A stretch of DNA of 64,000 bases, from contig JBAZZL010000003.1 in NCBI GenBank assembly GCA_041658785.1, forward strand, positions 639-64,638, in the 5' to 3' direction. A program made the translations under genes and the position numbers. This document shows, piece by piece, positions 1 through 50,137 of this stretch. Positions within the stretch are counted from its first letter, which is position 1. Each line of letters begins with the position of its first letter. Under the pieces are notes generated by a model that saw only the letters and a program-made list of their open reading frames with translations, ran no database searches and was not told the origin of the DNA. This DNA comes from Patescibacteria group bacterium. GTDB lineage: Bacteria > Patescibacteriota > Patescibacteriia > Magasanikbacterales > UBA922.

Positions 1-705
1 TTCCCGGGCCGCCGCCCTCTGCGCTTCGTGGGCGCGGACGACCGCCTGCCGGATAAGCTCGCCGCCGGCCCCCCACTCCTTGGATCCAGACTTCTCCTGG
101 AGAATCCGGAAAACCATGGAGCGCAGGTTGCGGGCCCCGCGTTTGGCGAACTGGTTCTCCTCCGGCAGGGGGAACTTCTCAATCCACCGGCCAATGAAGT
201 CCCCGACCACCCACCGAGCGCGGCTGGGCTTGCGCAGAAGCCTGCCCGGCCGGATTCCTCCGGCGAGCGGGTCCGCAAGCCTGGCGTCGACCCAGGCCTG
301 GAGCTCGGCCATGTCGGCCGGCTCACGCTCCCTCCGCGACTTGGCCTCCGCCTCCTGAGACAAGCGGAGCCGACGCTGCTCCTCCTGCCTCTCCCGCTCC
401 TTTTCCCTGCCGGCTGCGGTCAGCTCGGAGAGCGTCACCGTCGCGGACAGGGCGACACCCTGAAAGTTAGCCGACATCCTAAACTGCCGGTGAAGACAGA
501 GGCCGTCCTCCGACAGTCTGGATTCTTCCCCGCCAACACGGACATCAACTTCTGTGGACGGCGTCCAACCGTCCGTTGCTTCGAACAAGAACTTTCCGTT
601 AAACCCCGCCTTGGCGGGGCGAAAGTCCACCAACTTCCCCTCACGGTTGAGGTGAGCGGTGCCCACCGCGCCGTTCTGGGATGTCCAAATCTTCTTGATC
701 GCCAT
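1..705 (-). CDS. hypothetical protein, 5' partial: the ORF runs off the window start. Translation begins MAIKKIWTSQNGAVGTAHLNREGKLVDF... and the C-terminal half is a charged coiled coil
   Basis: Minus-strand frame is open from the ATG at 705 to position 1 with no stop. A strong SD, GGAGGAGAAACC, precedes the ATG. GC3-rich codon usage fits this high-GC block. The ORF track omitted it because it has no in-window stop. Confidence 0.5.
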   Translation of the reverse strand, partial: MAIKKIWTSQNGAVGTAHLNREGKLVDFRPAKAGFNGKFLFEATDGWTPSTEVDVRVGGEESRLSEDGLCLHRQFRMSANFQGVALSATVTLSELTAAGREKERERQEEQRRLRLSQEAEAKSRREREPADMAELQAWVDARLADPLAGGIRPGRLLRKPSRARWVVGDFIGRWIEKFPLPEENQFAKRGARNLRSMVFRILQEKSGSKEWGAGGELIRQAVVRAHEAQRAAARE

Positions 706-854
706 GGTTTCTCCTCCTGTTTCCCACACTTCATGGCAAAAGCGCGGGAGTTGTTTTCTCATCCCGTCCCAACAACATCGTTGAGCCGGGAAGTTGAAGC
801 CCGAACCGTTAACCTCCAGTTTGACGGTTCGGGTAAAGGTGGCGCCGGCGCGCG

Positions 855-1274
855 TCAGAATCTGTCGAGCACATTGCCGAGATCTTTGACCTCGAGCATG
901 GCCCGCAAATCTTCGGGCAGGCGCGCGATCGCCTTCTTCGTGCCGGTGGACATGGCATCCACATGCACGCGAGTGAATCCGCGCTCGCGGCACCGCTCTA
1001 CGGTCGCCCGCATAAGCTCTGTGCCGTAACCCAAGCCGCGAGCGCCCGGAACAACATAGAGCCCGACGATCGCGGGCGTGCCATTTGATCCTTGCTCGCC
1101 CTGCGGCGCGATGGTCGCGGCGCCATAGACGCAGCCGTTCTCCTCAATCAGCACCGCTTCGTCGCAGCACGAGAAGCGGTCGCCGACAAAGAGAATAGCC
1201 GCAACCGGACAGATCGGCCGGCTGTGCAACCACTCCGAAAACTCGCTCATTGAAACGATGCGGGTATCCCTCAT
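855..1274 (-). CDS. GNAT family N-acetyltransferase
   Basis: 139 aa. Acetyl-CoA-binding motifs (VVPGARGLGYGTELM, RERGFTRVHVD). GGAGGAGG RBS directly upstream of the ATG. Confidence 0.8.
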   Translation of the reverse strand: MRDTRIVSMSEFSEWLHSRPICPVAAILFVGDRFSCCDEAVLIEENGCVYGAATIAPQGEQGSNGTPAIVGLYVVPGARGLGYGTELMRATVERCRERGFTRVHVDAMSTGTKKAIARLPEDLRAMLEVKDLGNVLDRF

Positions 1275-1487
1275 CGCCTCCTCCTTTCTAAAGTTGAAAG
1301 AACCACTCGCGCCGCCGAGCCCATCTCGGTTCGCGGATTTTTCCCCTGAAACTTTCGCTTCAGGGGCTTCCGGAAAATCAAAGTATTTTTGATTCTCTGG
1401 AAGATTTGAAATAATTTACGGAGTGATCCCGACTTAGTCGGGACCAGTTTGTCACGTGCTTCGTGTCGCGTAATCATGTCGCGTAAT

Positions 1488-1516
1488 TTGACGGCTAGTT
1501 TTTCCCCTGTTATACT
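1488..1516 (+). promoter_or_regulatory. sigma70-type promoter TTGACG-N17-TATACT with a TTTTCCCCTGT spacer box, ATG 8 nt downstream
   Basis: Consensus hexamers read directly. The same spacer box recurs at 3277, 6883 and 7590. Confidence 0.5.
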
Positions 1517-1524
1517 GGCAAGGT

Positions 1525-1740
1525 ATGACTACCAAACAATTAACTAAACAACTCAACCGGATCGGACAATTAGAAAAGGAACTACAATTGCTTAAAATCG
1601 TTGTTTTTAAAGCTCTGCCCAAACAAACCGGACGGACTTCTTCTGCTCACGCGGAAAGGACTCTGCTAAAAGCCGCGAAAGACGTCCGGAATGATCTTTG
1701 GCAATCACGCTATGCCAAAAAAGTTGCGCGTGTTTCTTGA
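1525..1740 (+). CDS. small putative antitoxin, partner of the PIN toxin
   Basis: 71 aa basic, helical ORF. It overlaps the downstream PIN gene by ~29 nt and sits behind a consensus promoter. Confidence 0.45.
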   Translation: MTTKQLTKQLNRIGQLEKELQLLKIVVFKALPKQTGRTSSAHAERTLLKAAKDVRNDLWQSRYAKKVARVS

Positions 1741-2146
1741 TACCAGCGCGATTTTAGCTGGGCTTAACTCGCCAAATGGAGCCGCCGGCATAATTCTGGC
1801 GGCTTGTTTTGTTCATGAAGCTATTCCGGTTATCTCCCCTCAAGTCGTTGAGGAGGCCGAACGGGTAATCGCTCAAAAATTTCCAAGGTTATTCGCCGGC
1901 TGGATCATTTTTTTGCTTATACCGCCGCAAATCGCTTCTCCACCTACTCTGGCTCAAGTAAGAAAGGCCTATCGTGTCCTGCCGACAAACGACGCGCCTA
2001 TTCTCGCCGCCGCTCTCAACACCCGCCCTGACGCTCTGGTAACTTGGAACACGCGCGACTTCATGCGTCCGGCAGTGGTGGAGGCATCGCCTTTTCCCAT
2101 TTTGCGGCCGGGTGAATTTCTGCGCCTGCTCCAACGCGGCAACTAA
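1712..2146 (+). CDS. PIN-domain ribonuclease (VapC-like toxin)
   Basis: Acidic PIN residues are present: VFLDTSAI, NDAPILAAAL, TWNTRDF. Typical toxin-antitoxin overlap with the upstream small ORF. Confidence 0.7.
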   Translation: MPKKLRVFLDTSAILAGLNSPNGAAGIILAACFVHEAIPVISPQVVEEAERVIAQKFPRLFAGWIIFLLIPPQIASPPTLAQVRKAYRVLPTNDAPILAAALNTRPDALVTWNTRDFMRPAVVEASPFPILRPGEFLRLLQRGN

Positions 2147-2492
2147 TCCCGCGGCAACCGGCAAAATAACAGACACTATCGGTATTTTTTGTTTTTTTGG
2201 AATGTAATGAACGTTGTCACCAGTCACAAGACACATGCCACGCATCATCCCTGCGATTTGTAAGCGCGGCTCACAGCTTACAACGCAAGCAAGCGCCGGT
2301 CATGGCGCTTGCGCTGGGCTCCGATTGAGCCGCGCAACCACCACGAAGGCGGCCAACGGAACCTCGCGAGAGTCCCCTTGACCGATGGTGGTTGCTTTGT
2401 TTAATTGTTTAATTGTTTAATTGTTACATTGTCAAATTGTTACATTGTTATTATGTTGTCGGTGTTGCAGTGTTGCAGCGCTGTCGTCTTAT

Positions 2493-3155
2493 TTACTTCA
2501 CCGTTACCCGTTTGTCCCAATATTCAACTGATTTTTTATACTCCTCGGGGTCAAGCGGCACGCCGCTGCCGCCGTATTCTTTGCCCAGAGCGTTACGGAG
2601 CATTGTTGTCGGATCAATCGGTTCTGCTTCCGGCGTGGGCAGGCCCATAATTTTCACAATCCCCCAATCGGCCGCGGGCACATCCGCCTCGCCGCTCGCT
2701 TCCGCTTCTTTTCGCAGTTGATCCTGGCGGTAAAGAACGATTCCCAAATAATTTGCCGCAGGCGTCTCCACTCCTTCGGCCCAGCGCGTCAAAACTGGCA
2801 GTTCATTTTCACGGCGCGCCTCAAAACCGTTCCGAATTTCCCCCCGATTTTCGTCCGTGATTTCCACGGAACCCACCCGCGCGTCGGTAAAATTTTCCAC
2901 AAAGAGCAGGCGGCAAAAATCGGCATATCCGGGCTTTACTGTTGCCCCGGCCAAGCGCGCCGCCAGCTCCTGTTCAAACTCTTCCGGCGTATGGCTGGAA
3001 ATTTTCGTGCCGGCAAAATCTTTTTTAAAATGCCGCTTGACGAATTCAGTCATGCCGGCGGACGAAATCGTCAACCCCTCTTTTTGCTCGGCGTCAGAAT
3101 GTTCCGCGTTCACGGACGGCCGCTCGCCGGTATTTTCGTTGGTCATAGGTGTCAT
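2493..3155 (-). CDS. hypothetical protein
   Basis: 220 aa ORF, acidic, balanced composition, no recognisable motif. It lies between repeat-rich intergenic regions. Confidence 0.45.
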   Translation of the reverse strand: MTPMTNENTGERPSVNAEHSDAEQKEGLTISSAGMTEFVKRHFKKDFAGTKISSHTPEEFEQELAARLAGATVKPGYADFCRLLFVENFTDARVGSVEITDENRGEIRNGFEARRENELPVLTRWAEGVETPAANYLGIVLYRQDQLRKEAEASGEADVPAADWGIVKIMGLPTPEAEPIDPTTMLRNALGKEYGGSGVPLDPEEYKKSVEYWDKRVTVK

Positions 3156-3276
3156 AGATAATGTGAGTTAAGAATAAATACGATAATTATATCATGTAAC
3201 GTGTAGCGTGTAACTTGTAACGTGGCGCACATTTTTAAAAATAGAATATCCACATTCCGCAACGGGAAAATGATAT

Positions 3277-3305
3277 TTGACAATCATTTTTCCCCCTGTT
3301 ATACT
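3277..3305 (+). promoter_or_regulatory. consensus promoter TTGACA-N17-TATACT (TTTTCCCCCTGT box) for paralog A, leaderless or near-leaderless
   Basis: Exact -35 and -10 hexamers. The ATG lies 9 nt after the -10. Confidence 0.55.
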
Positions 3306-3313
3306 CATTTTAT

Positions 3314-3595
3314 ATGAACCAAACATCAGACCCGACAATCAAAGACGTTATGGAGGTCGTTGAATTCATCCGTGACAATGCCGCGACTAAGGATGACGTC
3401 CAGGCAGTTAGAGCCGAGCTACAAAAAGAAATCCAAGACGCTAAAAATGAAACGATCGGCCATATTGATGGTTTTGTCAAACTGCACAAAGACATGGACA
3501 CTGAAATCGCCGCACTCAAATCATCTTACCAGCGGCACGAAGAGCAAATCAGCCAAATCGTCCGCCACCTCGGCCTCCAATTGTCTAATGGCTGA
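3314..3595 (+). CDS. small coiled-coil protein, paralog A of a DUF1640-like ATKDD(L/I) repeat family
   Basis: 93 aa. The N terminus MNQTSDPTIKDV and the C terminus SQIVRHLGLQLS are shared with the ORFs at 6921 and 7627. Identical promoter and start context. Confidence 0.7.
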   Translation: MNQTSDPTIKDVMEVVEFIRDNAATKDDVQAVRAELQKEIQDAKNETIGHIDGFVKLHKDMDTEIAALKSSYQRHEEQISQIVRHLGLQLSNG

Positions 3596-3612
3596 TCTGA
3601 TTTACCGCCAGT

Positions 3613-3640
3613 AATCCCGATGCTATCGGGTTTTTTGTTT
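3613..3640 (+). terminator. intrinsic terminator AATCCCGA-TGCTA-TCGGG followed by TTTTTTGTTTTTTG
   Basis: Hairpin followed by a T-run. A TGTAATGAAC tail motif is also seen after 2200 and 8070. Confidence 0.6.
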
Positions 3641-3695
3641 TTTGTAATGAACACAATTATTTTTTTCAATCGATAACTTTCGCAACGAACTTTGG

Positions 3696-3744
3696 GCGGT
3701 AACCCGCACCTCATCCCCTGCCCTTCTCCTAAAAGGAGAAGGGA
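3696..3744 (+). repeat. fragment (left half) of the MITE-like structured element
   Basis: CGGTAACCCGCACCTCATCCCCTGCCC...hairpin matches the copies at 31411 and 43958. Confidence 0.45.
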
Positions 3745-3839
3745 GCAATCCAACGATCTTTTGATTTTCCGATCTTTTGATCTTCAATCACCCCATCACC
3801 CCATCCTCCTCCACAATCCCTGAATTATCAGAAACTTTG

Positions 3840-4140
3840 GAAGGTGGCGAAGCGAGTGAAGCTTCGCCGCCAAGTGCGTCCAACGAGGGATTAGGAAATC
3901 CCGAATTGTTGGACTTCCCCGCCATGCAAATAGGCGGGGCGTTTGGTGGGAAGGCGGATCGGGAATTAGGTCGTCCGATCCGCCGCGTACTGCGGTGGCC
4001 CGCTTTTTGGGCTTTGGCCGGTACGCGCGGCCTGACGTCTCATCCTCTTACTGCTCCGTCGGAACGGAGCAGGGGACGTCCGCGATCGACGCGGCCCCAC
4101 CTGCCCCACCCTCGTAATGGGTGAAGATCAGGTGGCACCG
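3840..4140. repeat. GC-rich array of at least six perfect stem-loops; candidate structured RNA or a REP-like cluster
   Basis: Perfect stems at 3846-3868, 3887-3902, 3917-3939, 3953-3984 (10 bp), 4051-4072 (9 bp) and 4097-4136 (nested). Confidence 0.4.
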
Positions 4141-4440
4141 CCCATCCGCGGCGTCCCGAAAGAGAATGAGATCGTTCGGCCCGAAATCATCCACGAGGAC
4201 GACCTCGAACCGGCCCGATTCTCCGCCGGTCGTCTCACCGACCTCCACTGGCGGGCGATTTGCCAACCAGATGGCGCCGATGAGAACTGCCAACACCAGG
4301 CCAAAGAGAATGGCCCATATTGGCTCCCGGCGGAGAAGGGACAGAAGGGATCTCATCCCTTTGTCCTTTCCGCCAATCCTTATCGTGTTCCCGATTTTCA
4401 TCGGAACGGGACAAACCCGCCGGATTTCAGCAAGGGACAC
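4048..4440 (-). CDS. hypothetical small membrane protein; the start is uncertain, with M29 at 4356 as an alternative
   Basis: One clear TM helix (IWAILFGLVLAVLIGAIWLA). It is the most protein-like frame in a GC-rich block where the overlapping plus-strand ORFs look spurious. Confidence 0.3.
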   Translation of the reverse strand: MSLAEIRRVCPVPMKIGNTIRIGGKDKGMRSLLSLLRREPIWAILFGLVLAVLIGAIWLANRPPVEVGETTGGESGRFEVVLVDDFGPNDLILFRDAADGRCHLIFTHYEGGAGGAASIADVPCSVPTEQ

Positions 4441-5050
4441 CCTGCCTTATACCGGTTTTTTGGATTGGCGGATTCTCAAAGAGCGCGCTTCGCAAGCCCA
4501 GTATGGCTTTCGTTTCCTGGCACGCGCCAAGAAAACCTGCGAAGAAACACCTCTTCATTCACCCGACGCGCGATGCACGCATCACGACCCAAGTCCGCGT
4601 GTTTCGCATATCGTGTCAATGAAAAGGTGTTTGTTTTTTTATTTGAAAGAACGGAACACGAATCCTTCACACGAATTTACACAAATTATATTCGTGTGAA
4701 TTCGTGAAAAAATTCGTGTTTCCCCTTCAACCCTCAATCTTTTAATCAGCGCAATCAATGATTCAGAGTCCAAGGGGATAGATGAATGGCGTGTGCAGTG
4801 CTGTTCATCTCATCCCGAATGCGCAACTGATTCGGCAGTTGCCACCTACACGCGTAGATAACCCATCAGCGTGATCTGGGGGCAAGACAATTTATTTAAC
4901 GCCGTCTGCCGGGGCGCGCGGGTTCGCGTAGGTTAGCGTACCTACAGGAACCCGGTGGTGTACCTCACGGTGCACCTCCTTCTTGGGGTTAATCTACCTC
5001 TTGTTCCTCACTACCCCTTGAGTGAGGAGAGGTTGTCGCGGAATGCGACA

Positions 5051-5959
5051 CTACTTCGCGAACCGCCTGCATATCTCCAGCACCTGCTCGGGGATGAGCT
5101 TCGACTGGCTGCCGTCCGGGTTGCGCGGGCTACCGCCGACGGAGCTGGCGCCGCCCCAGTTCGCCGCGTGCGACTGTTCCGGGTTGACCTCGATCTCCTT
5201 CAGGGCGAGCTGCCCCAGGATCGTGTCCTTCCGGTAGTCGTCGAGCGACGTGGGCGGGCGCTTGGTGGCGCCGGGGCCGACCGCGAGCGGCACGAGGTCC
5301 GACCGCTTGGCGACGGTGTACATGAGCGTTCCGTTGGGCGCGTCCGTGAAGAGCACGCCCGCGAGGAAGCCCTGGTTGTACACGTCGTCGAAGCCGATCT
5401 TCGTCTCGACCGCCTGCCAGCAGGTCTTCGGCGACCACGCGTAGCCCTTCGACGGGCGCTCCAGACGCGCGGGCGGGGCCTGCCACTCGCCGTTGGCGTA
5501 CTGGGTCACCTTCACGAGGAAGGTTTCCAGCATAGCCACGGTCTGTGGCTCCTTGCTCCCGTAAGCCGGGGCCAGCTCGCGGTGGATGTCGTGCGGGGCG
5601 AAGATCGGGCCGTGCGCGTCGGTGAGGCCAACGCGCTCGACGAGCTCCTTCACCTTCTCCTCGTTCACGCGCTCCGGGTTGGCGAGCAACCAGACCGAGA
5701 GGCTCGTGTCCGCGTCCAGGTCGTTGATGTAGACCTGGGTGTCCTCGTCCACCACGAGCCCGAGGCGGATCGCCGTCGCCACCTGCTGGCACGTGGCCAG
5801 GGTGACGAGGCGGGTGCACGCCGCATGGTGATCAAACGAGAACTTGCGGTTCACGGCGTCGATCTGCGGGCCCTGGACGGCTCCGTCGAGCGCAATGCTG
5901 TTAGCGGGAAGGTTCGCGAAATCGACAACCTGACCGAACACGAAATTGATACGCGCCAT
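5051..5959 (-). CDS. hypothetical protein in a high-GC block
   Basis: ~302 aa starting at MARINFVFGQ with RBS GAGGAGGAAGAA. GC3-rich. The frames at 4955..6007(+) and 5130..5819(-) are shadows of it. Confidence 0.55.
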   Translation of the reverse strand: MARINFVFGQVVDFANLPANSIALDGAVQGPQIDAVNRKFSFDHHAACTRLVTLATCQQVATAIRLGLVVDEDTQVYINDLDADTSLSVWLLANPERVNEEKVKELVERVGLTDAHGPIFAPHDIHRELAPAYGSKEPQTVAMLETFLVKVTQYANGEWQAPPARLERPSKGYAWSPKTCWQAVETKIGFDDVYNQGFLAGVLFTDAPNGTLMYTVAKRSDLVPLAVGPGATKRPPTSLDDYRKDTILGQLALKEIEVNPEQSHAANWGGASSVGGSPRNPDGSQSKLIPEQVLEICRRFAK

Positions 5960-6479
5960 TTCTTCCTCCTCTCGGAGACTCCTGCGGACAAACCCACCCA
6001 TGGCTAGGTGGGAGGAGTGCCCTTGCGGGCTTGTTTCTGCTTGTCCGCTTAGCCATATCCCATCCCCCGCAAAAGCGAAGAAATTTTTCCCCACACCATG
6101 CGGGGAGGGATATTTTGGAAAAGGCATCTCGGGTCGGCTTCTGCCCCGAGTTACCTACCCTAAATCACTCAACACGATTTACACACTTCACAAAACATCT
6201 GCATTCGCATTTGTTTCGTGCTGTATGTCTCGTGCCTCGTGAAAAAAGGATTCGATCTGTCCGCCCTCTCGAGCGCCACGGAACTTCCCCGCGGTATTAC
6301 TGCCCAGAGCCAGACGACAATTCAGCTTGCGCCGAACTTCGCGAGGCATTTTTATTTTTACAACGTCATTGGTTGGACGTTGGTTTTATTAAATTTTATA
6401 GAACAAGAGCCTGTCTGCGGCTCTCGCGAAACTTTTTTCTCAAAAAATCTTGCGAGAACCCCGGAACACGAATTTTTCC

Positions 6480-8190: not shown

Positions 8191-9320
8191 TACCGACTGC
8201 CTTTCTCTCCACCACCTTGCGGCGGTCAAGAGAAGGCGCACTCGGTACCACATTCTCTGGTGAAAATGTGGAGCGGTCGCGAGGGAGTTTTGACCGAATC
8301 GCTTCAGCCAAAGCTATCAACCTCCACCGCCGTTCCCCGATTTAATCGGAGAAAAAAACCAGATGTGTATCTCACATCGCCGATAGGACTCTCTCCTATT
8401 TTTCATACGGGCAATGCGGGATCAAACACTTGAATTTAATGAACCTATAGTCAGATATATTCCACTCTTGCTCGCAACCGGATTAACAACCGACAAGCGT
8501 TTGTCAATCCAAGTCTATTGAGCAGGGATTATTCCGACAGAACAGGTGGCATGGCTTTTACCCGTCCGAGTGTCGCTCGCGCGGCAGGTGGACAGATATT
8601 TGCTTGTCAGAGGATGTCCGCAGGCATTGGGCAATAAATATTACTTTTCCCCGCCAATGGACACTGTGATCTCTCTCCATGTCACCCCATCTATCGGAAC
8701 AAAAAATCCCTCTTTGGGGAAAGGGGGTTTGATTTCAGATTTCAGATTGCAGATTTATTTCACAAATCAATCTCCAATCTCTTGATCTTTTGATCTTTAG
8801 ATCTTTTGATCTTCAATCGTTCATTTTGCCCTCTCTCCAAGGCAATTTTTGTTATAAGTTGTATTGAACGGTCTCTTTTGCTTTTTGATTTTAACAGAAC
8901 AGTATAACATCATTTGGGGTAATTGTCAAGAGTTGTTTGGAAATTGGAAATTAGTAATTGGTAATTTGTTTTATTTGAGCTAAATTTTGTCATAAAAAAT
9001 ATGTCTATTCTTTACTTGACATATTTATTTGGCTATGTTATACTATGTTTATGATTAGCCAAGAAAATTGTATCTCCATCTTAAATTATTTCATGGGGTT
9101 TCAATGAAAAAAAACGTATATTTGGCTAAAATAACTGTTGTAATTAGTAAATGGTAAACAGTAATTGATAATTGTTCCATTGCCCCATTGTCCTATTGTC
9201 AATTACTAATTACAATTTACAAATTACCCAATCGCCCAATTACCAATTTCTATTTACCATTTACCCTCAAATTAGAACCATCCGTAAATCAGGATTATCC
9301 GTCATCCGTAAGTTAAACCT

Positions 9321-23308: not shown

Positions 23309-23641
23309 TTACAAAATCCTTATTCCGGTCTGTCTGATTTCATCAATCAACATGCTTCCCTCCTGAAAGTCTCTGGGGTGATAGCCGACCGGTTCAATAA
23401 CCGGTTGGTGGGGATCGCGGATCGGAGCCAAATAATTCCAAAGGTAACGTTTTGCTTTCCACGGATTATTAAATTTTGGCGAAACAATACAAACATCAAT
23501 GTCGCTCCATTTGTTCGCGTTTCCTTTGGCAAAAGAGCCAAAAATATACACCGACCTGATCGGTAATTTTTCTTCTCGAAGCCGGCCGACAAATTCTTCT
23601 ACTTCTTTTTTTATTTTTTTTGGTACTGTCTTTTTAGCCAT
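23309..23641 (-). CDS. minimal nucleotidyltransferase (MNT) antitoxin
   Basis: GSFAKGNANKWSDIDV motif (GSx10DxD). Confidence 0.8.
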   Translation of the reverse strand: MAKKTVPKKIKKEVEEFVGRLREEKLPIRSVYIFGSFAKGNANKWSDIDVCIVSPKFNNPWKAKRYLWNYLAPIRDPHQPVIEPVGYHPRDFQEGSMLIDEIRQTGIRIL

Positions 23642-24021
23642 AAATTATACGAGCGGCAAATTTTAAGCCACTTATTAGCATAGCTTTCCGTGCACCGCTT
23701 ATAAAAAGCGTATTTTTCATCTTCGTATCTTCCCGCGATATTGAAATCGGTAATCTCCCGAAAATCTCTCGTTTGTTTTTGGTTTAGCGCCAAATCCGCC
23801 AATGCCGCCAGTCGCGCCAAATCGTGAATGCGCGGCGGTAATTCTTTCGTCTTCAAAACCACGAGCCCCTTTAACAACTTTTCGATCGTGAGGTGAGCAA
23901 AAAATAAAGAGTCGCTATAGCGCCTGCCCTTGAAAAGATACAGCGCCGTATCCCAATTCCGGCTGGCAGAAAGGCGCCAATAGGAAATCTGTTTGCTAAT
24001 TTTCTGTGACGAAAGCTGCAT
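23611..24021 (-). CDS. HEPN-domain protein (toxin partner of the MNT)
   Basis: 136 aa helical ORF with an R-x-x-HD motif (PRIHDL). It overlaps the MNT gene by ~30 nt. Confidence 0.7.
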   Translation of the reverse strand: MQLSSQKISKQISYWRLSASRNWDTALYLFKGRRYSDSLFFAHLTIEKLLKGLVVLKTKELPPRIHDLARLAALADLALNQKQTRDFREITDFNIAGRYEDEKYAFYKRCTESYANKWLKICRSYNLWLKRQYQKK

Positions 24022-24079: not shown

Positions 24080-25222
24080 TCACGCCGATACATGAAAATA
24101 ACACACATCCCCATCCTTCACCTCATACTCTTTCCCCACCAACTGCAACACTCCTTTCTCCTTCGCGCCGGCCCAGCCGCCGCACGCGACAAAATCCGGC
24201 CACGGCACAACGTCGGCTTTGATATAACCCTTGATAAAATCCGTATGAATCACGCCCGCGGCCCCCGGCCCCTTGGTTCCCCATTTAACCGTCCACGCCC
24301 GCGTCTCCGGCTCGCCGGAAGTGAAGTAAGTAACTAAATCCAACAATTTATAACCGGCGACAATTATCTTATCCAACCCAGACTGCTCCAGCCCGCTCGC
24401 TTTCAGATACTCCCTCGCCTCCGCCGCCGTCAAATCCGCCAACTCCGCTTCCAACTTCGCCGAGATATTCACACCCACTTCGCTGTCTGTCAAAAAATTA
24501 GTTTCCTGCTTGTTTTCCCGCCAAAGCCCCGTAGCGAACGGGGTCCCGCTTCGTTGCGATGACGGGACCCCGCTCGCTGCGGGGCCAGTTTCTTCGCAGT
24601 TAAAAACATACATCATCGGCTTCATCGTCAAAAGATGCAAGTCCTTTATTGTCAGCGCTTCCTCATCGGTGTAATCCAACGAACGCGCCGACTTGCCCGA
24701 TTCCAAATGCGTGTTCAGTTTTTCCAACAATTCAATCTCCGCTTTGGTCTGTTTGTCAACGAGCCCCTTGGCCTTTTTTTTGGTATTCGCAAGGCGATTT
24801 TCCACTGTCTGCCAATCGGCCAAAACTAACTCCAAGTTGATCACTTCCGCGTCTTCTTTGGGATCAACTTTATTATGAACGTGCATCACGTTAGCATCTT
24901 CAAACGCACGCACGACTTGAACAATCGCGTCCACTTCTCTGATGTGCGAAAGAAATTTGTTGCCCAGCCCCTCGCCTTCCGAAGCGCCTTTGACTAAGCC
25001 GGCGATGTCAACAAATTTAATTGCCGTAGGGATTATTTTTTTTGATTTTGAAACATCGGCCAGTTTTTGCAGGCGTTCATCAGGAACTTCAACAATACCA
25101 ATGTTCGGTTCAATGGTGCAAAAAGGATAATTTTGCGCGTCGGCCTGCTTGCTGCGGGTGAGGGCGTTAAACAGGGTTGACTTGCCGACATTGGGGAGAC
25201 CGACGATTCCGAGGGAGAGCAT
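24080..25222 (-). CDS. ychF: ribosome-binding ATPase YchF
   Basis: G1 GLPNVGKST, a coiled-coil domain and the C-terminal TGS domain ([14 protein letters not shown]...GDV). Confidence 0.85.
24527..24587. repeat. GC-rich 61-bp imperfect palindrome (23-nt arms, 2 mismatches) embedded in-frame in ychF
   Basis: GCCCCGTAGCGAACGGGGTCCCG / CGGGACCCCGCTCGCTGCGGGGC. It encodes ...[20 protein letters not shown]... Confidence 0.6.
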
Positions 25223-25452
25223 ATCATGATGCACGATACACGTATCACGAGTCATACACGAATTGTCCAACTGATTTGTGATGTGTTTCTAGTGACTTGT
25301 GGCGTAGTTTGTGATGAGGACGCCATTATTATGAAGAAATGGGGATTAAAAGTCAACCGCGGGTGTCATTTTGTAAATATCATCTCGATTTATTTGAAAA
25401 ACTTTGACTCTCTCTTTCTTTTTAATTATAATTGAAGACGAAGGAGGTGCAC

Positions 25453-34775: not shown

Positions 34776-35516
34776 TTATAATGTTATAGTTAAATCATCA
34801 AAAGCCGCCCGGCTGTTCGGAAAAATTTGTTTAGCGATTCTTTCCGCCTTTTTTCTTGACGCGATTGAATCGTATCTGTCCGCTCCAAAGTGGGTCAGGA
34901 ATAGCCGTTTGGCTCCGGCTTTTTTGGCGATCGCCGCCGCTTCCTTCGGATTGGCGTGGCCCCAGACATCGCTTTCGCCCGGCAAAAAAGCGCATTCGTG
35001 AACGAGAATATCCGCGTTTTTGCCAAGAGCGATTGCATTGTCGCATGGGCCGGTGTCGGAACAATAAGAAATAATTTTATTTTCCAGATAAAGTCTGTAT
35101 CCCAAAGTTAAGTCCGCGTGTTTTAGCAATCGGCAATCAAACTTAAGCGGTTTTTTATAACTGCCTTGTTTCAGCCCGATAATCTTTGCTTTATATTTAA
35201 GATTTTTTAAAGCGCCGGTGAAAGGATGATTGATGATAAATTTGAATTTTTGCATTGATTCTTGGGCGAGTAAAATTGTGAGGGGTTGCTTGAAATCAAA
35301 CAGCGGCAGAAGATGCATGCCGTAGATGTGATCCAGGTGCAGATGACTGATAAAAAGGTAAACTGGCTTATCTTTTTTATAATATTTTTTTAATTTATGG
35401 ATGCCAAGACCCGCATCCAGGATGATGTATTTGTCTTTGGTTTCTATCAGAGTGCAAATGGTGTTGCCGATCTTGGTGTCAAACCAGCCGTTGGTGCCGA
35501 GGAAGGTGATTTGCAT
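34776..35516 (-). CDS. MBL-fold metallo-hydrolase
   Basis: HLHLDHIYG metal-binding motif. Confidence 0.75.
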   Translation of the reverse strand: MQITFLGTNGWFDTKIGNTICTLIETKDKYIILDAGLGIHKLKKYYKKDKPVYLFISHLHLDHIYGMHLLPLFDFKQPLTILLAQESMQKFKFIINHPFTGALKNLKYKAKIIGLKQGSYKKPLKFDCRLLKHADLTLGYRLYLENKIISYCSDTGPCDNAIALGKNADILVHECAFLPGESDVWGHANPKEAAAIAKKAGAKRLFLTHFGADRYDSIASRKKAERIAKQIFPNSRAAFDDLTITL

Positions 35517-35520
35517 AGAA

Positions 35521-35612
35521 GTTGTAAGTTGTAAGTTGTAAGTTGTAAGTTGTAAGTTGTAAGTTGTAAGTTGTAAGTTGTAAGTTGTAAGTTGTAAGTT
35601 GTAAAGTTGCGA
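35521..35612. repeat. (TTGTAAG)n tandem heptamer array, ~12 units
   Basis: Read directly. It is the inverted counterpart of 35974-36018. Confidence 0.9.
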
Positions 35613-35613
35613 G

Positions 35614-35973
35614 TTACTTTTGAACCTTCATCCAACCGTATAGCAGGCGGCCGCATTCTTCCAGATTTTTAAATAGGCCATCATATTCTTTGAGAGACAT
35701 GTAATCTAGGTCTTTTGCCAATAGCAAATGATATTTTAATTCTTCCAGCGACGCAAGGGCGATGTTATAAAATCGCAATGAATCACCTACACACTTTCTT
35801 TTGAAACCTTCCGCAATATTTGCTGGAAATGAAATGGCTGCGCGGCACGATTGGTCAACCAATCTAAACCTTTCATCAGAAGGATATTTTTTTGTAACCA
35901 GGTATACTTTTAGGACCATCGCGTGTCCTTTTTGCCAAGCCAATATTTCTTTAAATGTTCTTATCCCTGCCAT
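35614..35973 (-). CDS. four-helix-bundle protein (23S rRNA intervening-sequence protein family)
   Basis: 119 aa. ...ISFPANIAEGFKR... is typical of PF05635. Confidence 0.7.
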   Translation of the reverse strand: MAGIRTFKEILAWQKGHAMVLKVYLVTKKYPSDERFRLVDQSCRAAISFPANIAEGFKRKCVGDSLRFYNIALASLEELKYHLLLAKDLDYMSLKEYDGLFKNLEECGRLLYGWMKVQK

Positions 35974-36018
35974 AAGCTTACAACTTTACAACTTACAACT
36001 TTACAACTTACAACCCAC
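35974..36018. repeat. (CTTACAA / CTTTACAA)n array, reverse complement of the 35521 array
   Basis: Read directly; together the two arrays are long inverted arms around the 4HB gene. Confidence 0.85.
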
Positions 36019-47130: not shown

Positions 47131-48504
47131 TTATACTGACGTTTCTTGTTGATAAGATGTGGCGATCAGCAAAGCGGGTAAGAGCCAAAATAATATTGCC
47201 AAATCATTTTTTATATATGGACTGTCAACTAAGCCAGTAACAACAATCGCGGTCATACTCGCGAGTAAAAAGATTGAAAGATTAAAAGATTGAAAGCTTG
47301 ACGTATTATCTTTAATCTTACAATCTTTTAATCTTTTAATCTTTAATACCCCAATTATTCCAGTTTTGAAGAACCAGACCATTATTAACAGAAAACCCAC
47401 AAGTCCGGTTAAACCCAAACCCACCCACATCGTTAAGAAAATATTATGCGGATGATGAAAGATTTCAATGCCCTCGCCGTTGACCGCAGTGTGATAGGGA
47501 ATGATTTTTTCTTTATAAGACGCCAGACCGGCGCCGAAGATTGGGTTGTCTTTTAGAAATTGCCAGGTTTCCTGATAAATAGAGAGGCGGATTTGGCCGG
47601 AGCGGTCTTGGAGAGTTAATTCTTTTTTGATGGGATTGTAAGCGGGGAGAAGGGCAAGGGTAAGGAGGCCGGAAGCCAGAAGGATGATGGTGATTAGCCG
47701 CGTTTTTTTATAAAAAAATAATAAGAGCGCGATTCCCGCGGCGAGGCCGGCGAGGCCGCCGGTGGATTTGGCGAAAATAATTGCCAGTGGTGATGAAATT
47801 AGAAATAAGAAACTAGAAACTAGGGTCAGCCAGTTTCCAGTTTCCAGTTTCCAGTTTCTTTTTTTCAACCTCTGAAAAGATTGGATTAGCAAATATAACG
47901 CAATCGGCACAATCGGCGCAAGAAACAATCCTACCGCATTCGGAAATCCATACCACCCAGTAACGCGGAAGGCGTTGCCGTTTTCCCAAAATGCGTAAGG
48001 AACCATGAAACCCGTGAAATGTTGATAGATGGCGAGAAGCGAAGTTGCCAGTCCGGATAGAATGAGAGCAAATAGGATTAAAGATTGAAGATTGAAGATT
48101 AAAGATTTTGTGGTTGATTGTTGATTGTTGATGGTGGTAATTAGGATAATGAAGATTAGAAACGGTTCAATGTAAAACGCTTTCCATTCCCCAGCCGCCG
48201 CTCGGACGTCAACCGAAGTGAATATTGAAGCGGTGGCGGCTACCAGGAAAATGAATGACCCGATGAATAAAATTTTATGTCGTAAAATCTGAAATCTGAA
48301 ATTTGAAATCTGAAATCTTTTGACAATCCAAACGGCGATGATAATCCAAATCATCGCTTCCAGCAGTGTCGTCGGCAACGGTCCAATATTGAAGCGGATT
48401 AAATATGTCGGCAATAGGAGAAATAAAAAAAACAGGCTGAGGCGGAAACGCAACCACGTGATTAAAACGAAGAATAATGAGTAAAGAATAATGAGTAGCG
48501 GCAT
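47131..48504 (-). CDS. O-antigen ligase / polymerase family membrane protein (Wzy_C domain)
   Basis: >10 TM helices; periplasmic loop with ...IFGAGLASY. The gene contains four 7-8-bp tandem-repeat tracts. Confidence 0.65.
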   Translation of the reverse strand: MPLLIILYSLFFVLITWLRFRLSLFFLFLLLPTYLIRFNIGPLPTTLLEAMIWIIIAVWIVKRFQISNFRFQILRHKILFIGSFIFLVAATASIFTSVDVRAAAGEWKAFYIEPFLIFIILITTINNQQSTTKSLIFNLQSLILFALILSGLATSLLAIYQHFTGFMVPYAFWENGNAFRVTGWYGFPNAVGLFLAPIVPIALYLLIQSFQRLKKRNWKLETGNWLTLVSSFLFLISSPLAIIFAKSTGGLAGLAAGIALLLFFYKKTRLITIILLASGLLTLALLPAYNPIKKELTLQDRSGQIRLSIYQETWQFLKDNPIFGAGLASYKEKIIPYHTAVNGEGIEIFHHPHNIFLTMWVGLGLTGLVGFLLIMVWFFKTGIIGVLKIKRLKDCKIKDNTSSFQSFNLSIFLLASMTAIVVTGLVDSPYIKNDLAILFWLLPALLIATSYQQETSV

Positions 48505-48564
48505 ATTGCTTATTGTTTATCGCTTAGTTTCAATTCAGCGATAGGCGATAGGCGATATTTTCAA

Positions 48565-49983
48565 TCAATGCAACGATACTATTTCTTTTATTGTTTCTTT
48601 TGATATTCCACCAAGCGCGAGCAGCATGAGAGAGTAAACTGCGCCACCGATGATTGCGAGCATTATTACATGTAGATCTTTTAATAAAAATAACATTGCG
48701 GCCATGACAATCGCAGAGAAAATTATTTTAGCCAGTGTTTGCATCTGCAACTTTTCTTGGCTGTAATGCCGGATGGTAAAAAACAACATTATTCCGGCGT
48801 AGAGTTCGGAAAATACAGTCATCCATGCCGCGCCGTACATGCCGTATTGAGGAATGAAAATTAAATAGCCGATAAGCGTAATAATTGCGGTAGAAATATA
48901 AATCCAGATAGTCTGCTTTTGTTTGTTGATGGCGACCGCGGTGTGGCCAAAGACCGCACCGAGATACAGGCCAAAAACGGCAATGGCCAAGATTTGGAGG
49001 GCGTCGCCCGAAGCAATGAATTTTGGTCCAGCCACCAGCAACATTATTTTTTTAGCCAGCATGATTACTCCTATGGCCATGGGCACGGCAATCGCCATCA
49101 TGGCGTCAAACGATTGCTGGTAATGTCTTCTAAATCCCAATTTTAAATGGCGCGACCAGTGATAAGCCAAAAGCGGCAGCATTACGCCCATCAGCATCAT
49201 AGCCAGCTGGGTCAAAATATCAATTACTCGATAAGCAGCGCCATATATTCCCACTTCGGTTTGATCGCGGAAAATTGACAGGAGAATTACGTCTCCTTTT
49301 AAATAAATTACATTGAAAATTATGGAAACGGTGATTGGCCACATCTTCACCATGATTGTTTTCCAGATCTGCCAGTCAAAAGCAAAACCAGCCGGACTTT
49401 CTTGATTGGCGCAAATCCACAAGAACGCAGTATAAACAACGCTTGAAGCAACTACTACCCACACCAGAGTTAAAAAAGACGCTTGCAAGTTGATTAAAAG
49501 CCACAGACCAAGGACCAAGATTACCCTCCCAAGATTTTCGCCAATAACCTGAAAAAGCATCTTTAATTTAGTCTGATAAAAGCCGATCAATACCTGATTC
49601 ATGGCAATCGCAAAGAAGGAAATGGTGGTAAAGCTAATTGCCAGTTTAACTTCCAGCGGATAAGGGAAAAACAGCGCGATCAGCGGGGCGATCGCTAGAA
49701 ATATAATAGCGGTAGTAAAGCGGAAACCAAGCAGATTTTTGAATAATTGTTTTTTATCAAAAGCCGGCTCGCTCATCATCTGCGCTGTTACCGGCACCAA
49801 GCCGAAGTCAATCAGGATCCCGACAAAACCTAGAAAAGAAATAACGGTAATATACCAGCCAAACTGCTCTTGGCCCAAATACCTCGTCATCATGCCGAGC
49901 GCGAGCAACCCCAAGATTGTTGAGGTAATTTTTCCGATTATCTGAATGATGGTGTTGCGGGCGATTTTTTTTGTTAATGACAT
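48565..49983 (-). CDS. oligosaccharide flippase (Wzx / MOP superfamily)
   Basis: ~472 aa with 12-14 TM helices and polysaccharide-biosynthesis family composition. Confidence 0.7.
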   Translation of the reverse strand: MSLTKKIARNTIIQIIGKITSTILGLLALGMMTRYLGQEQFGWYITVISFLGFVGILIDFGLVPVTAQMMSEPAFDKKQLFKNLLGFRFTTAIIFLAIAPLIALFFPYPLEVKLAISFTTISFFAIAMNQVLIGFYQTKLKMLFQVIGENLGRVILVLGLWLLINLQASFLTLVWVVVASSVVYTAFLWICANQESPAGFAFDWQIWKTIMVKMWPITVSIIFNVIYLKGDVILLSIFRDQTEVGIYGAAYRVIDILTQLAMMLMGVMLPLLAYHWSRHLKLGFRRHYQQSFDAMMAIAVPMAIGVIMLAKKIMLLVAGPKFIASGDALQILAIAVFGLYLGAVFGHTAVAINKQKQTIWIYISTAIITLIGYLIFIPQYGMYGAAWMTVFSELYAGIMLFFTIRHYSQEKLQMQTLAKIIFSAIVMAAMLFLLKDLHVIMLAIIGGAVYSLMLLALGGISKETIKEIVSLH

Positions 49984-50137
49984 AATATCTTGTAACGCGC
50001 AACCTGTAACTTGTAACATACCATGCGTTTTTTGTCATTAAGATAAGTTACAAGTTACCGGTTACACGATGTAGGTTACAGTATATAGGAGAAAATTTCA
50101 ATTGCCACCCATCCGTTATTTTGTTATAATTATTCGC

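Follow-up and report, generated by a model that had tools for sequence, protein, structure and literature searches.

Tetranucleotide repeats inside the lipooligosaccharide genes of Haemophilus and Neisseria give rise to phase variation, and the known switches built on simple sequence repeats (SSRs) usually consist of one tract per gene, placed near the 5' end or in the promoter, with on and off alleles common among isolates. Heptanucleotides also serve in SSR phase variation, as in the promoter repeats of Haemophilus influenzae hmw1A (PMC8262952, PMC12721329), a switch that has been studied at 13-24 copies (PMC8262952). An excess of heptamers has been reported for many bacteria and explained by slippage of the polymerase (Mrazek 2007, cited in PMC4679880 and PMC4692102), and long heptanucleotide SSRs are described as the short tandemly repeated repetitive (STRR) sequences of cyanobacteria, GGGAATC in Xanthomonas, GGGGAYT in Nostoc and TAACTGA in the Beggiatoaceae (PMC4692102, PMC4679880). 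A further kind of repetitive DNA found within genes is the Rickettsia palindromic element (RPE), about 150 bp long and classed in defined families, the members of which share a conserved peptide; RPEs form hairpins and lie in frame in unrelated genes, to which they add a peptide where one is tolerated (PMC10969869). Work reported here concerns a 64,000-nt stretch of DNA (hereafter the window; contig JBAZZL010000003.1, positions 639 to 64,638) from an uncultured Patescibacteria group bacterium of the Magasanikbacterales, in which a gene for an O-antigen-ligase-like membrane protein (47131..48504, minus strand) carries heptamer and octamer tracts within its coding sequence. An earlier reading of this DNA, here called the original prediction, proposed that slippage in these tracts could switch a surface glycan on and off. 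Our data show that the tracts lie in frame, recur at five positions, are specific to this gene and show no frameshift difference between strains. The gene is a hot spot of both repeats and variation; the phase-variation reading holds in part, and we found no evidence of switching. We favour, with a little better than even confidence, the explanation that the tracts are heptamer-biased slippage products which are kept in tolerant turns of the protein only if together they add a whole number of codons.

The ORF list and its translation show a single intact open reading frame (ORF) of 1374 nt and 457 residues that contains every tract. Tracts were called with Tandem Repeats Finder (TRF) and with a purpose-built detector, the chance level coming from 500 Markov shuffles. 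Our own detector finds seven period-7 or period-8 tracts in the gene where chance predicts 0.016, and no shuffle produced more than one. The two programs give copy numbers of 2.9-5.1 and matches of 82-100%, and about 86 of the 457 residues are encoded by repeats (Table 1). As a heptamer is translated through all three frames, the protein shows a period of seven residues, for example NWKLETGNW and FQISNFRFQ. The original prediction had listed four tracts of three to four units in the coding sequence. TRF finds all four, at coordinates a few bases away and with four to five copies, and the list had missed three others, at 47311-47344 (period 8, 4.2 copies), 48113-48132 and 48470-48497. Its point that the units are not multiples of three stands: the periods are 7 and 8, and simulated slips of one unit in either direction lead to products of 78-394 residues.

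Table 1. Repeat tracts of the ligase-like gene, with the gene and arrays adjoining it upstream. Positions are those of the window; pLDDT, predicted local distance difference test.
Feature	Position	Strand	Repeat or match	Encoded segment or location
N-terminal hot spot	48470..48497	(-)	14-nt (2 x 7) duplication; TRF period 14, 2.0 copies, 100% match	Codons 3-12, peptide LLIILYSLFF
Site 1	48283..48318	(-)	Sense (AGATTTC) x5; TRF 48285-48318, period 7, 4.9 copies	Residues 63-74 (RFQISNFRFQIL), turn following helix 2
Site 2a	48111..48132	(-)	Sense (AATCAAC) x3; TRF 48113-48132, 2.9 copies, 100% match	Residues 125-132 (INNQQSTT); residues 129-136 are a loop, pLDDT <50
Site 2b	48074..48107	(-)	Sense (AATCTTY) x4.9; TRF 48076-48107, period 7, 4.6 copies	Residues 133-144 (KSLIFNLQSLIL), beginning of the following helix
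Site 3a	47830..47858	(-)	Sense (GGAAACT) x4.1, perfect; TRF period 7, 100% match	Residues 216-225, one hairpin arm
Site 3b	47795..47823	(-)	Sense (TAGTTTC/TAATTTC) x4.1; TRF period 7; inverted repeat I5	Residues 228-237 (LVSSFLFLIS), second hairpin arm and helix start
Site 4a	47311..47344	(-)	Sense octamer (AAAGATTA) x4.2; TRF period 8	Residues 387-398 (LKIKRLKDCKIK)
Site 4b	47266..47301	(-)	Sense octamer (TCAATCTT) x4.5; TRF 47269-47301, period 8, 4.1 copies; inverted partner of site 4a	Residues 402-413 (SSFQSFNLSIFL); residues 398-406 have pLDDT <50
Flippase gene	48565..50019	(-)	Polysacc_synt/MOP family, Pfam PF01943, E = 4e-22	Upstream of the ligase gene
Spacer arrays	48501..48557		GCTTATT x2.9 and TAGGCGA x3.3; TRF 48504-48526 and 48538-48557	60-nt gap between the flippase and ligase genes

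The host protein has a Pfam Wzy_C domain (PF04932, 80.4 bits against a cut-off of 31.7, E = 1.5e-22) and 12 predicted transmembrane helices, and its AlphaFold model (predicted template modelling score 0.86) shows about 12 long helices. Foldseek found one significant fold match in the PDB, WaaL (7TPG_B, E = 1.8e-5, TM-score 0.59/0.66), which it resembles in the Wzy_C domain, the 12-helix fold, the large conserved outward-facing loop and the adjoining flippase gene. The two differ in sequence, being just 13% identical, and in their hosts: Patescibacteria are understood to be without an outer membrane, and a classical O-antigen role is therefore doubtful for this protein. Since its NCBIfam RfaL equivalog score of 22.1 bits is well under the cut-off of 277, we keep the name at WaaL/Wzy_C-like; the sequence of this protein does not tell whether it is a ligase, a polymerase or an O-oligosaccharyltransferase. 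An annotated protein from a Patescibacteria metagenome-assembled genome is 100% identical to that of the window, and the homologues belong to Candidatus Magasanikbacteria; the exact protein of the window had no record in the encoding-contig index.

In an alignment of 22 homologues each tract lies in unconserved, indel-rich columns separating strongly conserved blocks; the array-encoded segments align with gaps in the homologues, and the host ORF remains a single reading frame. In the model each of the four sites spans a helix end, the short loop after it and the beginning of the following helix, and two of the four loops score below 50 in pLDDT. Lys and Arg abound in the variable loops, which alternate with conserved loops such as GEWKAFYIEP, DRSGQIR, HHPHN and DSPYIKND. 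Judged by the positive-inside rule and the known topology of WaaL, the tracts would code for the tail at the N-terminus and for all but one of the five cytoplasmic turns, and the conserved outward-facing loops, on the face opposite to the arrays, probably include the catalytic region as they do in WaaL. Arrays that encode cytoplasmic turns could not vary the exposed surface of the protein.

In order to see how far the pattern extends, we retrieved 80 species-representative loci, together with flanks of 10 kb, and a further 41 homologous loci that came from metagenomes; 84 unique full-length orthologues were analysed. The orthologues are 33-59% identical to the query, and the metagenome matches 41-59%. 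The peptide patterns that fetched the 80 loci lie outside the arrays, while those used for the metagenomes included one array-encoded peptide; because the former avoid the arrays and the metagenome matches are just 41-59% identical, retrieval should not favour array-bearing genes. The metagenome scan for further near-identical strains gave homologues in this same range of identity only. At least one tract was found in 46 of the 84 orthologues and none in the remaining 38. The orthologue tracts, with a median of 4.1 copies (n=128), are strikingly confined: 123 of the 128 fall in five hot spots that amount to 37% of the protein, namely residues 1-20 (17 tracts), 52-82 (site 1; 23), 115-150 (site 2; 16), 203-242 (site 3, the busiest; 47) and 376-418 (site 4; 20). 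The C-terminal tail, which we regard as dispensable, holds a single one.

The tracts are also concentrated in this gene, with an overall density of about 0.9 per kb. For Magasanikbacteria the period-7 density is 0.80 per kb in the ligase gene, 0.03 in flanking ORFs (15 tracts in 505 kb) and 0.23 in the non-ORF flanks; for Falkow-, Uhr- and Kuenenbacteria and their relatives the corresponding densities are 0.71, 0.04 and 0.49. Periods 5, 6, 9 and 10 show no enrichment in the ligase gene. We considered whether polytopic membrane proteins, or AT-rich loops, might carry tracts in general, and this can be ruled out, for the other polytopic membrane ORFs of the flanks (113 ORFs, 148.5 kb) contain one period-7/8 tract, located at a start codon (0.007 per kb). 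Given these densities, neither membrane proteins as a class nor base composition accounts for the enrichment, which for the ligase orthologues is 20- to 100-fold phylum-wide.

A distribution of this kind is usually taken as the mark of a contingency locus, in which one-unit slippage would reversibly switch the ligase off and on and so make a surface glycan phase-variable. The units would shift the frame, the gene encodes a surface-glycan enzyme and adjoins a flippase gene, period 7 is enriched phylum-wide in this gene and in no other polytopic membrane gene, and even the dispensable tail is nearly free of tracts. With the known SSR switches the locus has in common its unit length, its place in a gene for a surface structure and a local hot spot of variation. 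Against this, the known tracts are long and perfect, and those found here have 3-5 copies, are often imperfect and number up to seven over the whole length of the gene instead of one near its 5' end. The flippase named by the original prediction does adjoin the gene as a Polysacc_synt/MOP-type protein by Pfam, the Wzx-type matches in NCBIfam being weak.

Alleles were compared in consensus assemblies. Two further strains (loci L001 and L002) are nearly identical to the window over 7.4 kb, with 2 base differences in about 6 kb of flanks. Within the ligase gene, the only variable part of this locus among the three strains, there are 39 substitutions between the window and L001, and 20 substitutions plus a 33-nt insertion between the window and L002. 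Such local variation is a further point in favour of a contingency locus, but its form is not that of unit slippage. All three strains keep the ORF and have the same sequence in the N-terminal duplication and in the tracts of sites 2 and 4. The array of site 1 is interrupted in its middle in L002 by a GC-rich hairpin of 33 nt, inserted in frame, and at site 3 an alternative cassette (TTGGTCA/TTATTCN) of exactly equal length is present in L001, where the linked flanking changes indicate that the haplotype of L002 arose by recombination between those of the window and L001. No alleles differing by 7 or 8 nt in either direction were seen among the three strains, and the differences observed are in frame. 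The original prediction had looked to copy-number differences between strains as a sign of switching; two of its four tracts are identical in the three strains and one-unit differences were absent.

The same holds at greater distance. In a tblastn search of 126 orthologous loci the matches of each locus stayed within a single reading frame, and no tract-linked off allele was found among them, as opposed to the on and off alleles familiar from isolates with SSR switches. In another species one array-bearing protein, found on 8 contigs, is unchanged in three independent assemblies that we aligned, and its arrays are identical; a second array-bearing protein has 9 contigs listed for it. Most indels that separate related species are multiples of three, and the two exceptions lie at the 3' end. 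Another pair of loci (L005 and L008) is mosaic, blocks of 100% identity alternating with diverged blocks that hold sites 3 and 4. Mutagenesis of the diversity-generating retroelement type was considered for the diverged blocks and set aside, as the substitutions are by eye of all kinds and in one translated patch 9 differences lead to 2 residue changes; substitutions of all kinds with so few residue changes fit recombination.

Several orthologues at first resembled truncated or frameshifted alleles. The DNA of one 384-residue protein (P0111) is identical to that of a full-length protein (P0021), making it a gene-calling artefact, and a second short protein (P0157) comes from a locus, L057, where the gene is intact. 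For a third (P0141) the contig, L129, passes into unrelated sequence immediately ahead of the array and stops a short way beyond, which points to an assembly break or chimera and not to slippage. The protein P0150, from L133, does carry a real +1 T frameshift; this lies in the GDRSGQIR motif and not at a tract. It is one of only two disrupted orthologues, the other being a TAA nonsense codon in L040 in the same motif (around 2380), also outside the tracts. The T insertion in L133 creates GATCAGATCAG. Chance, faulty assembly or repeated inactivation at this point may explain why both disruptions hit one catalytic motif.

In-frame heptamer tracts of 3-5 copies are moreover present in other genes of related genomes, among them those for leucyl-tRNA synthetase (LeuRS, 5 tracts), NAD-dependent DNA ligase, TrmD, glutamate dehydrogenase and FemAB-type proteins. 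We take LeuRS, NAD-dependent DNA ligase and TrmD to be essential; tracts tolerated in such genes are not lethally unstable, and therefore are not switches by nature. In the LeuRS gene at L107:15040-18006, five in-frame heptamer tracts encode peptides such as ENPKSEIRNPK and KLQAPSSKLQ, and a NUDIX domain follows the editing domain.

Measured against the described contingency loci, then, this gene agrees in unit length and in the enrichment of its tracts in a surface gene, and it departs from them in tract length and in on/off alleles. We regard a classical contingency locus as rather unlikely, and on/off switching by slippage, as originally proposed, found no support in the three strains or the 126 loci.

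Another possibility is that the arrays, their peptides or the RNA hairpins they form are themselves selected, for example for the length of a cytoplasmic hairpin, for binding of a partner or for pausing of translation at membrane insertion. The two inverted array pairs, at sites 3 and 4, produce long hairpins, the arms of the one at site 4 (I1) being 31 nt long and 90% complementary. Raw folding energies in sliding windows are confounded by GC content, and z-scores were used instead: the RNA fold has -29.8 kcal/mol (z = -8.2) at site 4 and -29.6 kcal/mol (z = -5.6) at site 3. The folding test showed no significant RNA structure at 48060-48140 or 48275-48325 (sites 2 and 1), neither of which is palindromic. 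Among the orthologues, 6-11% of genes have hairpins with z < -3 at the sites, compared to 0-2% in control regions, and this, like the five identical positions phylum-wide and a tract density above the non-coding baseline, is consistent with selection. So is the recurrence at site 3, in distant lineages, of a similar two-array layout encoding NW(K)-type peptides. A conserved RNA hairpin can nevertheless be ruled out, since z has a median near 0 at each of the sites. Nor do the arrays look indispensable, considering the 38 tract-free orthologues, and their units and peptides vary freely across lineages and even between near-identical strains. Some units do recur, AATCTTC at site 2b (also in L009) and GGAAAYT/GGAAATG at site 3. 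With two of the four loops modelled at low confidence as well, a selected function for the arrays seems to us decidedly improbable.

The hairpins raise a further explanation, namely that the tracts were left behind by small mobile elements, such as miniature inverted-repeat transposable elements, repetitive extragenic palindromic (REP) sequences or RPE-like palindromic elements, inserted in frame. Sites 3 and 4 are inverted-repeat hairpins, and site 3 looks like a miniature of the array hairpin at 59656-60094. The GC-rich palindromic insertion in site 1 of L002 has relatives in a YchF-like gene of the window (24562-24583) and in two other loci (L069 and L080), a gene for a REP-associated tyrosine transposase (RAYT)-like protein lies nearby, and palindromic insertion into genes in frame has a precedent in Rickettsia (PMC10969869). 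The arrays themselves, however, share no consensus: 210 arrays fall into 113 canonical unit classes, of which the commonest has 8 members. Terminal repeats and target-site duplications are absent, no palindrome is present at site 1 or site 2, and most orthologues lack the hairpins. BLAST of each site against the window returned unit-level matches to other arrays and no multi-copy consensus, which together with the diversity of units rules out a single mobile repeat family. Compared to the Rickettsia elements, the arrays are short (20-36 nt) and look locally generated, and only the 33-nt insert of L002, a separate feature, resembles an element. We consider an origin of the tracts in mobile elements very unlikely.

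The GC-rich sequence is of interest on its own account. A block of about 90 nt at 24500-24600 (minus strand), within the ORF 24080-25270, contains three to four short hairpins, CCCCGCAGCGAGCGGGG and CCCCGTTCGCTACGGGG being examples, and lies in frame in a YchF-type GTPase gene. It matches the 33-nt ligase insertion of L002 at 21 of 22 nt (95%), and similar copies are found at L002:3200-3242, L069:13157-13197 and L080:10720-10759, one of them within another ligase orthologue. From its sequence the block looks like a member of a small REP- or RPE-like family of palindromic elements that insert into coding genes. The RAYT-like gene (46101-46799, minus strand) is situated about 330 nt downstream of the ligase gene, past one intervening TrpR-like gene; it matches NF047646 at 4.5e-17, under the curated cut-off, and also the C-terminal part of Pfam Y1_Tnp. 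It carries an in-frame repeat and palindrome insertion of its own (RVEAHCN twice, followed by a Pro/Gln-rich stretch), with a perfect palindrome of 16-bp stem at about 46394-46429. The gene is also present in L001 and L002, and a similar one lies near the ligase in L133.

We return to slippage, the explanation we favour, and to the repeats outside the gene. In the whole window there are 16 tracts of period 7 compared to 0.8 expected and 6 of period 8 compared to 0.1, and our detector found none of period 6 or 9-13. Its census counts 8 tracts in the ligase gene and 20 others, nearly all of them intergenic, at ORF edges or in ORFs judged spurious. The 80 species-representative loci show the same bias for periods 7 and 8 only. 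The fact that this bias is also found in non-coding DNA indicates that it stems from mutation and not from selection on the gene, and the diversity of units argues for a generic process as opposed to one mobile sequence. As the original prediction had noticed, the intergenic arrays share units with the gene: AAACTGG is shared by site 3 and the 54-copy array (59656-60030), AAATCTG by site 1 and the array at 8728-8755, and AAATTAG by site 3 and the array at 60052-60087.

We infer the slippage origin, the gain of three units at a time and the cytoplasmic location from these observations, and the process could run as follows. A general mutational process would favour heptamers, and less often octamers, with replication slippage duplicating units in tandem; occasional template switching could add an inverted copy and so give the hairpins of sites 3 and 4. 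Arrays are mostly intergenic in these genomes, and inside genes they would persist only where extra residues are tolerated and the net change is a multiple of three. The typical event would add three new units to one seed unit, a gain of 21 or 24 nt, or 7-8 residues, which would be the smallest in-frame gain. Extra residues would be tolerated in the tail at the N-terminus and in four cytoplasmic turns out of five, where arrays lengthen helix ends and loops. An array that is in frame would then be protected from decay by single units because such decay shifts the frame, and later change would come about through turnover of whole cassettes, recombination between alleles and further insertions. 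Coding tracts peak at about 4 copies, 44% of them measuring 26-31 nt compared to 18% of non-coding tracts, and they almost never exceed 38 nt; this hump fits one seed plus three added units.

The STRR-type repeats are like these arrays in several ways. There too heptamers are over-represented, mostly intergenic (in the window the ligase gene is the exception), often near gene ends and sometimes in inverted pairs, with occasional intragenic copies at the periphery of proteins, and their origin has been attributed to polymerase slippage. They differ from the arrays described here in using one or a few fixed units, compared to 113 unit classes, and in that their intragenic copies are rare and scattered, compared to up to seven tracts at five fixed positions of one orthologous gene phylum-wide.

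Several observations weigh against the slippage explanation. With about 2.9 tracts per kb, the hot spots are more densely populated than the non-coding flanks (0.23-0.49 per kb) and more than 100-fold more so than 148 kb of other polytopic membrane genes, and tolerance combined with a mutation bias does not explain a 20- to 100-fold specificity for the ligase gene. The recurrence of GGAAAYT/GGAAATG at site 3 in distant lineages could reflect common descent or selection. The rule of three added units is a statistical tendency, many tracts having 3 or 5 copies, and no slippage event was directly seen.

There are two potential reasons why this gene in particular should be affected. Our preferred guess is that it is conditionally dispensable, so that out-of-frame intermediates could persist until further slips restore the frame and arrays would accumulate as by a ratchet. 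This idea draws on two disrupted alleles, those of L040 and L133, both of which lie outside the tracts and either of which is perhaps an assembly error, and this too counts against it. Alternatively, selection may favour mutability itself, which would make the gene a true contingency locus.

Other repeats and genes of the window deserve mention. Between the convergent FtsH (57834-59681) and UvrA (60073-62922) genes, at 59656-60094, about 54 heptamers (TGGAAAC/TGGAAAT, with super-units of 14 and 35 nt) are followed by an inverted (CCAATTT) x6, which overlaps the last UvrA codons; the units are those of site 3 of the ligase gene. A gene for a 119-residue 23S rRNA intervening-sequence protein, which is also bAvd-like (35614-35973; PF05635, E = 4.8e-31), is flanked by inverted arrays of one unit, (TGTAAGT) x12.7 at 35516-35604 and (CTTACAA) x5 at 35977-36014, which could pair as a long stem enclosing the gene. 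The gene-poor region 8700-9270 contains at least six distinct heptamer or octamer arrays (8728-8755, 8777-8813, 8937-8966, 9171-9200, 9201-9227 and 9245-9265), and positions 1-6000 of the window may be a compositionally foreign segment. Next to the YchF gene, a gene pair at 23309-24021 (minus strand) encodes HEPN-domain (PF05168) and nucleotidyltransferase (PF01909) proteins, an arrangement typical of toxin-antitoxin modules, of which it is a candidate. Closer to the ligase gene, TRF finds a weak heptamer array across the first codons of the flippase gene (49989-50017) and more arrays directly upstream of it (50045-50089), and an ORF of about 485 residues upstream of the ligase gene has tracts at its start in four other loci (L050, L058, L094 and L101). 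Rfam identified two tRNAs elsewhere in the window and no known RNA in the ligase region.

As far as the searched literature goes, these are the first heptamer arrays shown in Patescibacteria: our search found no paper linking Magasanikbacteria with tandem repeats, and among the papers listed in a second search there was none combining Patescibacteria with phase variation, SSRs or heptamers. As one assembly breaks at an array (L129) and gene callers truncate the protein (P0111, P0157), this gene family should be annotated with care. What sets the system apart is its specificity, as the tracts concentrate in one conserved surface-glycan enzyme gene, at five positions that are probably inward-facing, in proteins 33-59% identical, next to neighbours that are almost tract-free.

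Many Patescibacteria are thought to live attached to host cells. A bolder and, in our estimation, unlikely reading is that the ligase gene is a phylum-wide hypermutable locus, where heptamer slippage knocks the gene out and restores it, each cycle leaving a 21-nt in-frame scar in a cytoplasmic turn. Were this true, the arrays would be both the record and the engine of a slow, reversible switching of a surface glycan, and the gene would be the first contingency-type locus for Patescibacteria, unusual in its several tracts per gene and its ratchet-like history. If the arrays are neutral, the gene would provide a clean natural setting in which to measure how loops of a protein grow through insertions driven by repeats; if they are selected, the gene is a candidate cell-surface glycan switch in ultrasmall bacteria.

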